Source of the DNA: Neisseriaceae bacterium B1
GTDB lineage: Bacteria; Pseudomonadota; Gammaproteobacteria; Burkholderiales; Neisseriaceae
Direction: 5' to 3'
DNA length: 32,000 bases
Assembly: GCA_051414845.1 (NCBI GenBank)
Contig: CP183313.1
Location: 217,536 to 249,535, forward strand
A program made the position numbers and the translations under genes. Of this stretch, positions 15,824 to 25,533 are shown piece by piece. The notes under the pieces were generated by a model. That model did not search any database. It was given only the letters and a program-made list of their open reading frames with translations, and was not told the DNA's origin. Every line of letters begins with the position of its first letter. Position 1 is the first letter of the stretch.

Positions 15824-15991
15824 TAATTTGACTAAAAAGATACTGTATTTCGTGTCAATTGAAATTATTAAAATAACTTGATTTAAATCAAATATTCTTA
15901 ACTTTTCTTGCTCTTTACGCGCGTTTAGCAGCGCACCACATTTTTGGTGTGTGCGTTGTTCTTACAGTTGCACCTTATTCAGGCAGTCTTT

Positions 15992-17008
15992 TCAGGCTGC
16001 CTGATTTTCTTTTGTGGGTTGCTCATGCAAGCTAGGATTGAACAAAGTGTCGTTTTTAATGCAGTGATACGCGTATTTCACCAGCTTAACCATCATCATC
16101 ACATACACTTTTTTCGGCGGTTTGCTTTGCACTTGTTTATCAAACCACGAGCGCCAGAGTTTGCTACGCGTACAGGCAACACGAGCGGGAATGTAGAGCG
16201 ATTTTCTTACGCTTCTATCGCCCATTTTGGACAGTTTAGCTTGCCCTTTGTATTTTCCTGATTGCCGTATTACAGGCGATAAACCAAGCCAACTAATTAA
16301 GTGTTTTGCCGTTGTGAATTTATCAATATCAATAAGCACAGCAAGCAGGATTTGTGAAGTTGTTTCGCCTAAGCCCGTTATGCTTTTTAAGATTTGTTGT
16401 TTGCGCTTTAAGTCGGCATTTTTGTCTATCAATCGTTGCATACGTTTTCGGCATTCCTCAAGTTGAATTTGCAAGGTATTTATAATCTTCTCAATCATTG
16501 TTTTGCTGTAGCCATCGGCAACGTACAGGCGATTCTTTTCCATGGTAAGCATGTTGTTCAGTTGTTCGCAACGTCGGTGCAGACTCTTTAATTCGGCTTT
16601 GCATTCACTTTCAGGCTGCCATAGTTCGGGCGTTTCGGCTTTTGCATATTGGGCAATGAGTTTGGCGTCTTGTTTGTCGGTTTTGATGCGTTTTAAGTGG
16701 TATTGGGCATAGTGTTTGATGATGCTGGGATTGATGACGCTGATGGCGATTTGATGGCGGTACAAATATTGGGCAATGGCGATGTAATAGACGTTGGTGG
16801 CTTCGCAGCAGACATGCAGAGATTGGGTGTCTATTTTCAGGCTGCATAACCATTCTAGAAGCTGCATAAAGCCGTTTTCGTCGTTGCTGATAATGATGTG
16901 CTTGTATTTGCTTTGAATGTGTATGCAGCAGTCTATTTTTTCTTTAGAAATGTCTAAGCCCAGCCAGTAGAGAATGCCGCTTTTTAAGTCGCTTTGTGCC
17001 ATGTTCAT
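15992..17008 (-). CDS. IS110/Piv-family (DEDD) recombinase/transposase, the terminal gene of the prophage
   Basis: YWLGLDISKEKIDCCI (N-terminal DEDD-type motif), KTDKQDAKLIAQYA, and ITGLGETTSQILLA...LISWLGLSPVIRQSGK (C-terminal IS110 domain). I place the start at ATG 17008 (TAAGG RBS), not 17059. The stop codon lies inside a DUS-like CAGGCAGCCTGA. Confidence 0.9.
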   Translation of the reverse strand: MNMAQSDLKSGILYWLGLDISKEKIDCCIHIQSKYKHIIISNDENGFMQLLEWLCSLKIDTQSLHVCCEATNVYYIAIAQYLYRHQIAISVINPSIIKHYAQYHLKRIKTDKQDAKLIAQYAKAETPELWQPESECKAELKSLHRRCEQLNNMLTMEKNRLYVADGYSKTMIEKIINTLQIQLEECRKRMQRLIDKNADLKRKQQILKSITGLGETTSQILLAVLIDIDKFTTAKHLISWLGLSPVIRQSGKYKGQAKLSKMGDRSVRKSLYIPARVACTRSKLWRSWFDKQVQSKPPKKVYVMMMVKLVKYAYHCIKNDTLFNPSLHEQPTKENQAA

Positions 17009-17140
17009 AAACCTTATGAATGCGGGCTTTTTTGCCCAAGATACTGTGATATTTATCAAAAATAGGAAACCGCACGCATCAATCTTTCTCTATTCATTTT
17101 CATAAAAGGCAGCTTATTACGATGTCGTGTGGTTTTGATT

Positions 17141-18325
17141 TTACTGAATATTCGCCAAGTTTTGCGCATTGCCTTCGTTGAGCGATGGGCGGGTTTCGCC
17201 ATTGAGTTGCGCAACATAAGCTTGATCATGCATAGGCTCGGTTTCAGTCGTTTGCGTTTGCTGTGGCTGTGTTTCCTGCTCGGGTGATTTGTAGGGATTG
17301 AACGGCATGCCATCTTCTAAATAGCTTTCGCACAATTCTTGCGAAATTTCCTTGATTTTTGTGAATTGGTTGGTGTAACAAGTGCATTTTTTGTCGACGC
17401 CAATAACGCACGCTTCAGGCCATTCCATGGTTTTAACTTGCCGTTGTCCATCGTACAGCGGTTTGGTTTCGGGACGTTCAGCCAATCGGGCAATAAAGTC
17501 TTCGGGTTTTGCGCCCAAGGTGTTTTGCATTTGATTTTGGGGTAAAGCTCCAGTTAGGCTTTGTGTCGCATTGCTGCCATTTAAAGTAGCAGGTGCGCTG
17601 GCAGTTGTGGTTTCAGTCGCGGTTTCTTCAGTTTTGCCGATGTTTTTGAGCAGACTGTAACTGAAATAAATCATAATAGGCATGAGAATAAAGACGACAG
17701 GCAGCACAAATACCCATTTTGTTACCTTGGTTTTGTTTTCTGTATGAATTTCCGCGGATTTGTACAAATCAAAGACTTTGTCATCCAGTTTATGAATTTT
17801 GGCAAAGGCATCTTTTGCTTGCGTGAGCGGATTGTTGGCGCAGTATTTCCATTCCAGTAGGGTACGCATACCGAGTTTGTTTTTGGCGATGTGCAGATGT
17901 TTATTGACCAGTCCACGCAGGTTGATGTCGATGTTTTTCGGGTTTTGGGTAAGAACGAATATATCAACGCCCAAGTGTCGGTGCGTATTGAGCCATGATA
18001 CATTGGGCGGAACTTGTGAACCGTTGGAACGAGCGGGCCATACGTCTTGAACTTCGTCAATAATCACAACTGAGCCATGGTTTTCAGGTTTTTTGATCCA
18101 TGTATGCATGTCGTGAAAGGAAAGTTGCTCGTCGGTGCTATGCGCTAACTCTTCTTTCAGGCTGCTGACGGCGATGTGAGGCAGCTCCAAACCTTTAATA
18201 TTCGTGAAGACTTTGCGCAGTTCGCCGTCAGGTGTCTTAAATATCGGGTCGTGCAACATCATGTGTACCATGTGTGCGGTTTTGCCAGCTCCGGGCGTGC
18301 CGGTAATGAGGACGATTTCTGCCAT
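17141..18325 (-). CDS. Zonular occludens toxin (Zot)-like / pI-type filamentous phage assembly ATPase
   Basis: MAEIVLITGTPGAGKTAHMV (Walker A), VVIIDEVQ (Walker B), a central TM segment (WVFVLPVVFILMPIMIYFSYSLL), and an AAGGAG RBS. Confidence 0.88.
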   Translation of the reverse strand: MAEIVLITGTPGAGKTAHMVHMMLHDPIFKTPDGELRKVFTNIKGLELPHIAVSSLKEELAHSTDEQLSFHDMHTWIKKPENHGSVVIIDEVQDVWPARSNGSQVPPNVSWLNTHRHLGVDIFVLTQNPKNIDINLRGLVNKHLHIAKNKLGMRTLLEWKYCANNPLTQAKDAFAKIHKLDDKVFDLYKSAEIHTENKTKVTKWVFVLPVVFILMPIMIYFSYSLLKNIGKTEETATETTTASAPATLNGSNATQSLTGALPQNQMQNTLGAKPEDFIARLAERPETKPLYDGQRQVKTMEWPEACVIGVDKKCTCYTNQFTKIKEISQELCESYLEDGMPFNPYKSPEQETQPQQTQTTETEPMHDQAYVAQLNGETRPSLNEGNAQNLANIQ

Positions 18326-18425
18326 GTCTGCTCCTTGCGAAATAGCGATTAAGTGGTGTGTGTTTTGCGCTAGAAATTAGATTTGTGGAATGTTTTAGGT
18401 TGGGTTAGCTGTGTGTTCCGAGACC

Positions 18426-18480
18426 GCCTAAATGTTTAAATATTTAAATCTTGGGGATTTAAATATTTAAACATTTAGGC
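18426..18480. repeat. Perfect hairpin: 25-bp arms with a 5-nt loop
   Basis: GCCTAAATGTTTAAATATTTAAATC-ttggg-GATTTAAATATTTAAACATTTAGGC, between the pVI-like stop (18489) and the zot start (18325). There is no flanking U-run on the minus strand. Confidence 0.85.
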
Positions 18481-18488
18481 TACCTGAG

Positions 18489-24527: not shown

Positions 24528-24585
24528 TTTTCAGGCTGCCTTAATAATTCGTTGAGTATGCCAATCTCGCCTATCGCTTGTGCAA

Positions 24586-24867
24586 TTAGCGCGATGTGGG
24601 CTTTTTTAAGGCTTGCTCTTGCGCTGCTTGGTTTTGTCTTGCGATTTCACGCCAGCTTACTTTTTTGTAGTCTATGGCGTTTTCAAATTGGTTTAGGTGT
24701 TTGTCTTCAAAGGCTGCGATTTTTTCCAGTGCTTCAGGTAGGGTTTGGCAGATGTGCATTTCGCTTTTGTCAGGCAAACCGTTTTTTATGGTAAGCAGGG
24801 ATACGCGGTAGTTTTGCGTTTCGGGATTGCGTCTAATCTGTACGTTTAAATCTTGGTTGTTTGACAT
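24586..24867 (-). CDS. Hypothetical phage protein, 93 aa
   Basis: An open frame whose start overlaps the end of the upstream ORF by 22 nt. Confidence 0.45.
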   Translation of the reverse strand: MSNNQDLNVQIRRNPETQNYRVSLLTIKNGLPDKSEMHICQTLPEALEKIAAFEDKHLNQFENAIDYKKVSWREIARQNQAAQEQALKKPTSR

Positions 24868-25151
24868 GGCATAATCCCTTTTTTTAAAAAATTTATTATG
24901 TGTTCTGCCATTTGCTCTATTTCAGTTTCCGTGGCGTCATTTGATAAATTTAAGGTTAAGAGTAAATCTGTTCCTATTCGTTTTGTCTTCGAACGAATAA
25001 AGTTGATTTCAATCACTTCTGCGTATGTGAAGCTGTTTACAGTTATTAGATACTGCTCATCAATTAACTTTTCGCCCCAAATGGTTTCTATTTGATATTC
25101 TGGATTTTTATCCTTTAGGCGTTGCTTGATTGTTGATTTCGTGAATGTCAT
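24846..25151 (-). CDS. Hypothetical protein, 101 aa (AT-rich island)
   Basis: ATG 25151 lies one nucleotide after the stop of the upstream ORF (TAAaATG). Confidence 0.45.
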   Translation of the reverse strand: MTFTKSTIKQRLKDKNPEYQIETIWGEKLIDEQYLITVNSFTYAEVIEINFIRSKTKRIGTDLLLTLNLSNDATETEIEQMAEHIINFLKKGIMPCQTTKI

Positions 25152-25152
25152 T

Positions 25153-25413
25153 TTAAAAACCCTTTGCACTTGTTGAAAAATAGTCTGTAGAATTAATTAA
25201 ATATTCTTCATAACGGCGATTTAATTCTTCAAAAGTGCTATCGTGAGCATCGATTGTTCTAAAATGACCAGCTTTAAAACATTCATAGCCATGAATTAAT
25301 GAATTAATTAAGATTTGACCCTTATAATTCGAGATTTCATAATTTGCGTTTAAAAGAGAAAGTTTTGAATCGATTTCGCTTAATTGAGCAGAATTTAATT
25401 TTTGATTTGACAT
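25153..25413 (-). CDS. Hypothetical protein, 86 aa (AT-rich island), first gene of the prophage transcription unit
   Basis: ATG 25413 is preceded by a CAAGGGG RBS that is part of a hairpin stem. Confidence 0.45.
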   Translation of the reverse strand: MSNQKLNSAQLSEIDSKLSLLNANYEISNYKGQILINSLIHGYECFKAGHFRTIDAHDSTFEELNRRYEEYLINSTDYFSTSAKGF

Positions 25414-25416
25414 GTT

Positions 25417-25533
25417 AAAGCCCCTTGTAATTAACATTTTTAATCCAAGGGGCTTTTTTAACCTTATTCAGATGATTGCTGATATTTTTAAAATATCGCA
25501 AAAGATACTTTGTTTGAATTTTAAAGCCCCTTG
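25417..25533. promoter_or_regulatory. Three copies of the 11-mer AAAGCCCCTTG (two forming a hairpin) in the prophage-proximal control region
   Basis: AAAGCCCCTTG at 25417-25427 and 25523-25533, and the inverted CAAGGGGCTTT at 25446-25456. Confidence 0.3.

Follow-up and report, generated by a model that had tools for sequence, protein, structure and literature searches.

According to a study citing Kawai 2005 and Meyer 2016 (PMC7058167), the filamentous Nf phages of Neisseria are flanked by CT and integrate through their own IS110-family transposase at the dRS3 repeat; since 2005, the account of site choice has been left at "their own transposase". In IS621, an insertion sequence (IS) of the IS110 family, a bridge RNA carries guides for the two half-sites around a CT core: a left guide has the top-strand sequence of its half-site, and a right guide is the reverse complement of its own (PMC11208160, Durrant et al. 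2024). IS110 recombinase and bridge RNA loci that move many kilobases of cargo, part of which matches phage references, have also been described (bioRxiv 10.64898/2026.08.14.744561), and the Thermus phages phiOH16, Zuza8 and Zuza27 are inoviruses with a terminal IS110-family transposase and a proposed Nf-like integration (PMC11437467). Here, a 32,000-nt stretch of the Neisseriaceae bacterium B1 chromosome (contig CP183313.1, positions 217,536 to 249,535; hereafter the window) is compared with these systems. Positions 15840-25552 of the window are read, with a probability of roughly 75%, as a complete temperate filamentous prophage of the Nf/meningococcal disease-associated (MDA) type that was guided by a phage-encoded bridge RNA and an IS621-like recombinase into a DNA uptake sequence (DUS) of its lysogenic host. 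As a prophage, the element is a fairly distant new member of an already known type; what the analysis adds is the integration module, namely an IS621-like recombinase with a conserved bridge-RNA homologue. No paper joining bridge RNA with Nf phages, inoviruses or prophage integration was found in a literature search that did not extend to subscription journals, and a prior description is possible.

The last gene of the element (15992-17008, minus strand, ATG at 17008) encodes a 338-aa IS621-like DEDD/serine recombinase of the IS110 family, with matches to PF01548 (DEDD_Tnp_IS110, 1.5e-25) and PF02371 (Transposase_20, 7e-21), in agreement with the terminal IS110/Piv recombinase proposed by the first-pass annotation. 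It aligns end to end with the IS621 transposase (PDB 8wt6; E 1e-49, residues 12-328 against 7-324), and the alignment retains the acidic and serine motifs GxD, E, DxxD and SG. The likeness to IS621 extends to an RNA directly upstream of the start codon with a target and a donor loop, a CT core, an identical left donor 7-mer (ACAGTAT), a junction promoter split between the two ends, and an abundant intergenic repeat as target, which is the repetitive extragenic palindromic (REP) element for IS621 and the DUS here. In contrast to IS621, however, the mobile unit is a whole virus of 9.7 kb whose circle is also a rolling-circle replicon, and the RNA lies 8.4 kb from the tip of the left end (LE) and from the junction promoter, whereas that of IS621 lies directly behind the promoter.

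Recombinase relatives show 50-87% identity. An 8,599-bp Logan contig (L106) has a 30-base terminal overlap and therefore represents either a circular 8,569-bp genome or a tandem copy; in this circle the recombinase gene lies between zot and the leading open reading frames (ORFs), and the same position is found in the Kingella negevensis prophage (CP123447, L107), the N. meningitidis Nf1 prophage and Kingella-type prophages. Because the circular genome and the other prophages carry the gene at the same position, the recombinase is considered part of the phage.

The candidate bridge RNA, with a target-binding and a donor-binding loop, occupies 17000-17137 on the minus strand (87 bits, E 1e-15) and is the sole significant match in the window, at 17137-17000, to a covariance model, R1, built from phage sequences only. 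Its predicted fold has a long stem upstream of the donor loop that encloses an internal loop and a small hairpin, a fold common to 12 phages though their sequences differ. In an RNAalifold analysis of a MAFFT alignment of ten phages, 20 pairs were obtained, all of them (20/20) with compensatory double changes; paired cells reached 97%, compared with 66% in column shuffles (0/500 shuffles reached the observed values), and sliding the partners by 1-3 columns lowered pairing to 29-50%. R1 also matches, at full length and in register, the experimentally validated bridge RNA of a genuine Escherichia coli IS621 copy (25.6 bits; E 0.0066 in 273 kb and 0.00085 in 35 kb, with rough calibration), and the four IS621 guides coincide with the four phage guide positions in the R1 alignment. 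Because of this match, the compensatory pairing and the guide positions, the RNA is regarded as a bridge-RNA homologue, which would be transcribed and guide recombination. The same element stands upstream of the Nf1 recombinase in N. meningitidis (CP031326, L113; 16358-16492, R1 111 bits), where the donor guide ATATCATC equals that phage's own end. As a separate observation, the left end of the IS621 copy in E. coli RM11911 (L114, 1490-1560) begins with a duplicated stretch of about 47 bp, with two occurrences of the TGTATTATCCCTCCAGTGCAGAGAAAATCGGCCAGTTTTCTCTGCC segment.

Four guides can be assigned on the minus strand of the window: the left target guide (LTG) AAGCUGCCU at 17115-17107, the right target guide (RTG) GAGAAAG at 17090-17084, the left donor guide (LDG) ACAGUAUCU at 17047-17039 and the right donor guide (RDG) AUAAG at 17017-17013. 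On the donor side, ACAGTATCT, 40 bases upstream of the recombinase ATG, is identical to the last seven phage bases plus the core, and the small hairpin is followed by ..ATAAGG, in which the RDG (ATAAG as DNA) is the reverse complement of CT-TAT at the phage start. The donor guides thus match the element's own ends at 10/10 and 5/5 positions. The left donor guides of other phages are CTGTCATCT in L106, AGTAGCATC in the Neisseria-type group, ATATCATC in L101 and Nf1, ATATAATC in K. negevensis, ACTATCATC in L104, ATACCATC in L100 and ACAGTATCT in L115. When guides and ends were cross-tabulated, cognate left donor guides matched 8/8 bases in 8/8 phages, whereas non-cognate pairs matched 3-7. The LTG region AAGCTGC-CT-TTTATG was considered as the left junction of a small independent IS. 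This reading was rejected because the bases in question make up the guide, and because the right donor guide is directed at the distant end of the unit.

When the two non-coding phage ends were aligned with the L106 circle junction, with L107, L113 and L115 and with IMG/VR loci, similarity stopped exactly at CT at both junctions. The conserved phage start reads CT-TATATA..GCCCC..GGGGC and the conserved end ATTGACA(N14)AT-CT; the end sequence ATTGACAC..ACAGTAT-CT is common to the window, L106, L107 and L115, with similarity ending after CT. The left-hand copy of the crossover core lies at 15838-15839 (AG on the plus strand, CT in phage orientation, minus strand), at the phage-end/host junction that is attR in phage orientation, and the right-hand copy at 25553-25554 on the plus strand, as the first two bases of a host DUS. 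The ends 15835 and 25515 given by the first-pass annotation were accordingly off by about 5 and 37 bases, the real ends being 15840 and 25552 plus the duplicated core.

The non-coding right end (RE, 15840-15991, minus strand) contains the left donor ACAGTAT (15846-15840) and a -35-like TTGACA (15858-15853). A terminator-like hairpin 3' of the recombinase gene (15979-16004, minus strand) is composed of two imperfect inverted DUS-like half-sites, with one full 12-mer DUS. The LE (25414-25552, minus strand) holds the right donor TATAT.., a -10-like TATATT and GCCCC..GGGGC hairpins at 25526-25545 and 25417-25456, and can be aligned up to the CT core with L106, L107, L115, L103, L113 and L082. If the ends are joined, a circle of 9,715 bp results, whose reconstructed phage attachment site (attP) reads ..AATACAGTAT-CT-TATATATTTG.. 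(also written ..CAATTGACACGAAATACAGTAT-CT-TATATATTTGCCCC..) and in which TTGACA-17 nt-TATATT spans the core; the same promoter is intact in the circular L106 and in L101. This predicted sigma-70 junction promoter would read into the phage genes, like that of IS110 circles. The host junctions read TTCAGGCAGC-CT and CT-TTTTAGTC, and the predicted empty host site is ..TTTGACTAAAA-AG-GCTGCCTGAAAGC.. Exact-pattern scans gave 0 matches for the predicted bacterial attachment site (attB) among metagenome contigs and 0 matches for the predicted attP among metagenome and viral contigs.

Several additional features were noted near the LE. The motif ACAAAGTATCTTTTG (25498-25512, minus strand) resembles the phage-end/host junction ACAGTAT-CT-TTTT; motifs of this type are common to L115 (~2860) and L103 (~7085) and absent from Neisseria-type phages; possible readings of the motif are a pseudo-donor site, a nick site and a relic. 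The occurrence of AAAAGATACT at 15835 and 25500 was rejected as an end repeat, given that the 25500 copy lies inside the LE and likeness to relatives continues to 25552. Logan contigs from two runs start 26-38 bases inside the LE, near the first GCCCC..GGGGC hairpin (L001 at 25526 and L110 at 25514); these positions were rejected as the phage end, since they differ by run and the contig of another run reads through, and low coverage or a variant may account for them. In the K. negevensis prophage, the left end is duplicated in tandem, with CT-TATATAGTAGAGCC.. starting at 8267 and 8559, 292 bp apart.

On the target side, the right-hand core belongs to the host DUS AGGCTGCCTGAA, a 12-mer at 25553-25564 (plus strand): its first two bases are complementary to the crossover CT, and TTCAGGCAGC-CT is the reverse complement of AGGCTGCCTGAA. 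On its 3' side, the target loop of the relatives is the reverse complement of CT plus the right flank and terminates in AG. Right target guides match their flanks fully in K. negevensis (AUCGUAG against CT-ACGAT, 7/7), L104 (GCAAAG against CT-TTGC, 7/7), L082 (AGAAAAG against CT-TTTCT, 7/7), L100 (CAAAAG against CT-TTTG, 6/6) and L115 (UUCAAAAAG against CT-TTTTGA, 8/8), and the Nf1 guide CGCGUAG fits the published dRS3 consensus CT-RCGCGG. The 5' side of the target loop resembles the left flank, exactly so in L082 (AGACGGCCU for TTCAGACGGC-CT) and with 1-2 mismatches in the others. For the window, AAGCUGCCU and GAGAAAG match the site CAGGCAGC-CT-TTTTAG at 9/11 positions of the core target. In 22.3 kb of reconstructed phage-free host DNA, 13 CT sites have at most 2 mismatches to the 11-nt target (~3.7 expected), and the real site is among them.

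A wider set of junctions, amounting to a few dozen, points in the same direction. Among Neisseria-type phages, 9/11 left junctions read TTTCAGACG[GA]C-CT, the reverse complement of AG-DUS or AG-mucDUS, at several loci and often in the second arm of a DUS-pair terminator. A Kingella-type phage that shares the donor of the window phage, and whose recombinase has 64% identity to the one in the window, has three different left flanks, each with the sequence TTCAGGCTGC-CT, which is AG-kingDUS in reverse complement. The flanks of the relatives' loci hold matching DUS dialects. At the meningococcal locus, the dialect is AT-DUS, whose reverse complement ends in AT, without a CT core, and the phage there sits at dRS3; the dRS3 pattern ATTCCC..GGGAAT is absent from the window junctions, and the Nf1 control shows dRS3. 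The host flanks in the window are packed with a 15-nt near-palindrome, TTCAGGC[A/T]GCCTGAA (e.g., 1124-1141, 8393-8454, 12094-12108 and 26428-26442), which makes two 12-mers about equally frequent (26 AG-simDUS and 25 AG-kingDUS in 22 kb of flanks, 1.39 loci/kb); the host dialect is thus mixed or palindromic. These data are suggestive of dialect-matched targeting, with the DUS as the likely preferred target. The broader proposal that the whole Neisseriaceae Nf-type inovirus lineage is a giant IS110-type element whose guide tracks the DUS dialect (AG-DUS, AG-kingDUS or AG-simDUS), and which was re-guided to dRS3 in AT-DUS hosts such as N. meningitidis, is favored by a narrow balance of the evidence.

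Taken together, the following mechanism is proposed. Integration would depend on neither a tyrosine integrase nor XerCD (no search was made for a dif-like site) and would instead use the bridge recombinase encoded by the last gene, and the ~135 nt ahead of that gene would encode the bridge RNA. The replicative form would correspond to the circular intermediate of IS110 elements, and in it 8.4 kb of phage genes separate the LE tip from the bridge RNA. In this circular form, the donor loop (LDG ACAGUAUCU, RDG AUAAG) would recognize the joined phage ends, ..ACAGTAT-CT-TATAT.., and the target loop (LTG AAGCUGCCU, RTG ..AAAG) a DUS-like chromosomal site. Through a crossover at the CT core, the circle would then have entered the DUS that lies between argH and an orphan gene, at its AG end, and CT would have been duplicated. 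The joined ends would rebuild the sigma-70 promoter TTGACA-17-TATATT, directed into the phage genes.

Several observations weigh against this reading. The E-value of R1 for IS621 is modest and its calibration rough; the stretch directly upstream of the RNA yielded no promoter-like site, and no Rfam family matches the RNA. The target fit in the window is partial (left target 5/7 plus core, right target 3/5), and the right target guide has no advantage over non-cognate ones, right flanks rich in T being common. Moreover, the guide positions were found with knowledge of the junctions, so that the target match (~1e-3) is not a blind one; for this copy, the case is weakest on the target side. Neither an empty argH-side site nor a circular junction of this exact phage was found, and the Logan contigs from three sequencing runs that carry this very phage have it integrated at this site every time; activity of this copy would thus be presumed. 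Finally, the assignments of the coat and single-stranded DNA (ssDNA)-binding proteins depend on weak matches and on position.

Some of these points would also suit a real but immobile prophage, a remnant that was recently immobilized or domesticated and in which the target guide would have diverged from the occupied site. Within the 11-nt core target, 2 positions mismatch the target guides, with further mismatches outside it, the RTG of L115 (CAAAAAG) would suit the right flank in the window better than the element's own, neither a circular junction nor an empty site came to light, and decay is plain in the K. negevensis relative, whose Rep is split (276 + 191 aa) and whose recombinase is truncated to 214 aa. 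However, 17/17 ORFs in the window are full length in comparison with relatives, the recombinase has kept its motifs, the fit of the donor guides to the ends is perfect (10/10 and 5/5), and natural IS110 elements commonly have 0-2 target mismatches (PMC11208160). Immobility of this copy is consequently judged unlikely, while deserving to be kept in view.

Two further alternatives question the module itself. The RNA might be a mere 5' leader or regulatory element, with the site chosen by the protein alone as in the classical Piv/IS110 picture; such a view can draw on the imperfect target match in the window and on the role of the RNA being a prediction from sequence. It is difficult to reconcile with loop sequences that covary with phage ends and flanks in eight independent phages, with stems that keep pairing through compensatory changes, with a recombinase homologous end to end to that of IS621, for which RNA guidance has been established experimentally (PMC11208160), or with a phage-derived model that finds the IS621 bridge RNA in register, and it is considered highly improbable. 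Even less credence is given to an independent IS110 element that landed beside a prophage integrated by other means, for example by XerCD at a dif-like site as in CTXphi. The recombinase is just 31-35% identical to those of the Rep-related phages, i.e., L106 (about 31%) and group A, a degree of divergence that suggests module exchange; yet what the right donor guide matches is not a site beside the recombinase but the opposite end of the 9.7-kb unit, on the side of Rep, the CT duplication flanks the entire phage, the recombinase gene is terminal in every relative, including the circular genome, and P0144 (64% identity), the one close homologue whose context was inspected, is again terminal in a filamentous prophage. 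As to exchange, the Kingella-type phage has a different Rep (498 aa) yet a recombinase 64% identical to that of the window and the same donor sequence, which suggests that recombinase, RNA and ends are exchanged between phages as a module.

Beyond the integration module, the gene content agrees with a filamentous phage. The element is flanked by argH (14447-15823, plus strand) and an orphan gene for a 247-aa protein (25611-26354, plus strand), between which seventeen co-directional ORFs lie on the minus strand. Their order is of the Ff type (Rep, an ORF of ssDNA-binding protein size, coat proteins, pIII-like TspB, pVI-like DUF2523 and Zot). Rep, a rolling-circle replication initiator of 435 aa (22542-23849), matches PF02486 (Rep_trans, 6e-27) and phrog_453 (2e-72); the 394-aa Zot/pI-like assembly ATPase (17141-18325) matches PF05707 (1e-31) and phrog_197 (2.5e-69); and the 97-aa pVI-like minor coat protein (DUF2523, 18489-18782) matches PF10734 (2e-16) and phrog_1242 (2e-20), all three on the minus strand, as are the remaining phage genes. 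The pIII-like adsorption protein of the TspB family (497 aa, 19305-20798) matches PF05616 (Neisseria_TspB, 2e-26) over residues 330-494; its N-terminal two-thirds gave no informative match, and a PDB sequence search gave nothing useful.

The smaller genes are less clearly assigned. The 85-aa major coat protein precursor (21494-21751) has a signal peptide (..ANA/AAS), an acidic N-terminus, a hydrophobic core and a basic C-terminus, with weak matches to Phage_Coat_B (0.03) and phrog_2374 (3.5e-4). A 110-aa protein (22143-22475) occupies the position of the ssDNA-binding protein and matches phrog_4994 (6e-21), a PHROG of unknown function; it had no PDB sequence match, a single-sequence AlphaFold2 model was mostly beta with low confidence (predicted local distance difference test, pLDDT, 48.6; too poor for a fold search), and the protein is a candidate for that role by its position after rep only. 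Two hydrophobic peptides are possible minor coat proteins: a 25-aa peptide with a GTG start (VMIIDFWFLLGFGAVAMIACFLLSV, 21100-21177), of possible pVII/pIX-like type, and a 28-aa peptide (MRFTLTQLGVAFVICLFLFLGSMYILLS, 21838-21924) preceded by AAGGAAA, which resembles a ribosome-binding site. A 103-aa protein with a C-terminal membrane helix (21164-21475) has counterparts of 102-103 aa in L106, L107 and L115, and a 68-aa protein (21921-22127) has a counterpart of equal length in L106. A 99-aa ORF (20743-21042) overlaps the start of the TspB-like gene and is kept in position and size in relatives; its L106 counterpart matches DUF1132, whereas the ORF in the window has no Pfam or PHROG match. Five small ORFs of 106, 70, 93, 101 and 86 aa (23908-25413) lead the unit, parts of them being conserved at the DNA level in L106 and L107; the first probably starts at 25413, giving 86 aa. 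No Pfam or PHROG match was obtained for these five or for the 99-, 103- and 68-aa ORFs, and none in Pfam for the 28-aa peptide. The virion would leave through a host secretin.

These results largely bear out the first-pass annotation, which had proposed an intact-looking Nf/MDA-like filamentous prophage with about seventeen co-directional minus-strand ORFs and no secretin gene: the profile matches (Rep_trans, Zot, DUF2523, TspB and IS110-family), gene order and orientation agree, the ORFs lie where it had placed them, every gene is full length in comparison with the circular L106, and the element holds no secretin-like ORF. Its ORF list had left out the 99-aa ORF, its "24-aa" peptide is the 25-aa GTG-start ORF, and the gene starts are set at ATG 17008 for the recombinase and probably at 25413 for the first of the five leading ORFs. 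The bridge RNA and the DUS target are absent from it. Its major coat precursor is consistent with the sequence features, with weak profile support, and its ORF of ssDNA-binding protein size is right in size and position, the profile match being to a family of unknown function. The view that such elements are poorly described outside pathogenic Neisseria holds for the literature and not for sequence data, where homologues occur widely, in genomes as well as metagenomes (Kingella, Eikenella, Alysiella, Snodgrassella, Wielerella and commensal Neisseria).

With regard to genomic setting, the host chromosome is 2.35 Mb, and the window proteins are identical to GenBank XXQ68516-35, of which 15 (XXQ68518-32) are annotated within the element. 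DUS density is 0.31/kb within the element against 1.39/kb in the flanks, and GC content is 43.6% within against 46.2% outside, both of which point to a foreign origin. The orphan 247-aa protein had no homologue but itself at E<=1e-10 among 5.8 billion clustered proteins, and its Pfam matches were all sub-threshold.

Non-coding elements are also present inside the phage. A 520-bp non-coding block between the TspB-like and pVI-like genes holds direct repeats right after the TspB-like stop (19187-19301; a ~44-nt unit present twice, 49 nt apart, and a 16-nt core motif occurring three times at a spacing of ~49-50 nt), a strong intrinsic-terminator-like hairpin (19106-19140, minus strand; 15 pairs, 11 of them G-C, and a T-run) and a near-perfect hairpin of ~230 nt (18859-19095, minus strand), which as phage (+) strand ssDNA folds at -115 kcal/mol (z = -20.7). 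The motif of this hairpin, AAGGGGG..TGTAA.GATT, recurs in L106 and L101, there between zot and the bridge RNA, and by analogy with Ff phages the hairpin is a candidate packaging signal or complementary-strand origin. The Logan contigs L001, L111 and L112 (two runs) break within the direct repeats. Between the pVI-like gene and zot lies a perfect AT-rich palindrome with 25-nt arms and a 5-nt spacer (18426-18480); an Rfam scan gave no matching family, and its only hits, on this palindrome, were spurious matches to plant and insect miRNA models. Just upstream of rep, within the 3' end of the 106-aa ORF, an inverted repeat with 25-nt arms, 92% complementary (23932-23992), is a possible replication origin; a similar GC-rich inverted repeat precedes rep in L104.

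Compared with the Nf1-Nf4/MDA phages, the element shares the order of small ORFs, Rep_trans, small ORFs, coat, TspB, DUF2523, Zot and terminal IS110 recombinase, an order also found at the meningococcal Nf1 locus (L113). Both also have CT duplicated at their ends and TATAT together with GCCCC..GGGGC hairpins in the LE, both lack a secretin gene, and in Nf1 the RNA likewise stands upstream of the recombinase. On the other hand, the element's Rep shares 40-47% identity with the Nf phages of N. meningitidis and N. gonorrhoeae and its recombinase is ~33% identical, its target is a DUS end rather than dRS3, it has five leading ORFs where theirs are fewer, it contains the 520-bp block with the 230-nt hairpin, and its host is an unclassified member of the Neisseriaceae with another DUS dialect. 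Its genes equal their L106 counterparts in length, with Rep 71% identical; metagenomic Rep relatives, L106 among them, stand at 68-71%. A megablast search of the element against GenBank phages gave no match, the best Rep matches there being inoviruses from human metagenomes (~43-45%), and in a large protein collection the Rep family is also present in N. gonorrhoeae and N. meningitidis (40-44%), N. mucosa, N. musculi, Snodgrassella, Wielerella, Eikenella and Kingella. The cargo-bearing IS110 loci resemble the element in combining an IS110 recombinase and a bridge RNA with large cargo (bioRxiv 10.64898/2026.08.14.744561), whereas inoviruses, Neisseria and the DUS have 0 occurrences in that report, and the cargo here is a complete self-replicating phage genome with synteny conserved across a bacterial family. 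The Thermus inoviruses, by their description, have an unrelated host and unrelated genes, with no RNA guide or target rule described for them. CTXphi is likewise a temperate filamentous phage with a Rep_trans-type Rep and Zot. It has no integrase of its own and uses the host XerCD at dif, in contrast to the phage in the window, which carries its own DEDD recombinase and CT-flanked ends.

If the proposed reading is correct, it would provide a testable mechanism for site choice by Nf/MDA-type phages and would explain the use of dRS3 in some lineages and of the DUS in others. The MDA phage has been linked to invasive meningococcal disease, and the same mechanism would extend to this disease-associated phage (L113). 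The element would further represent a natural case of an RNA-guided enzyme acting as a viral integrase, with a self-replicating cargo of 8-10 kb and a guide RNA uncoupled from the junction promoter, and the lineage would offer natural guide/target pairs across one bacterial family. For the phages, the host competence signal would be a ready, high-copy and mostly intergenic attachment site, and shifts of host or site would need only a few guide mutations. For the Neisseriaceae, these comparisons suggest that DUSs, usually seen as transformation signals and terminators, may double as phage landing pads.

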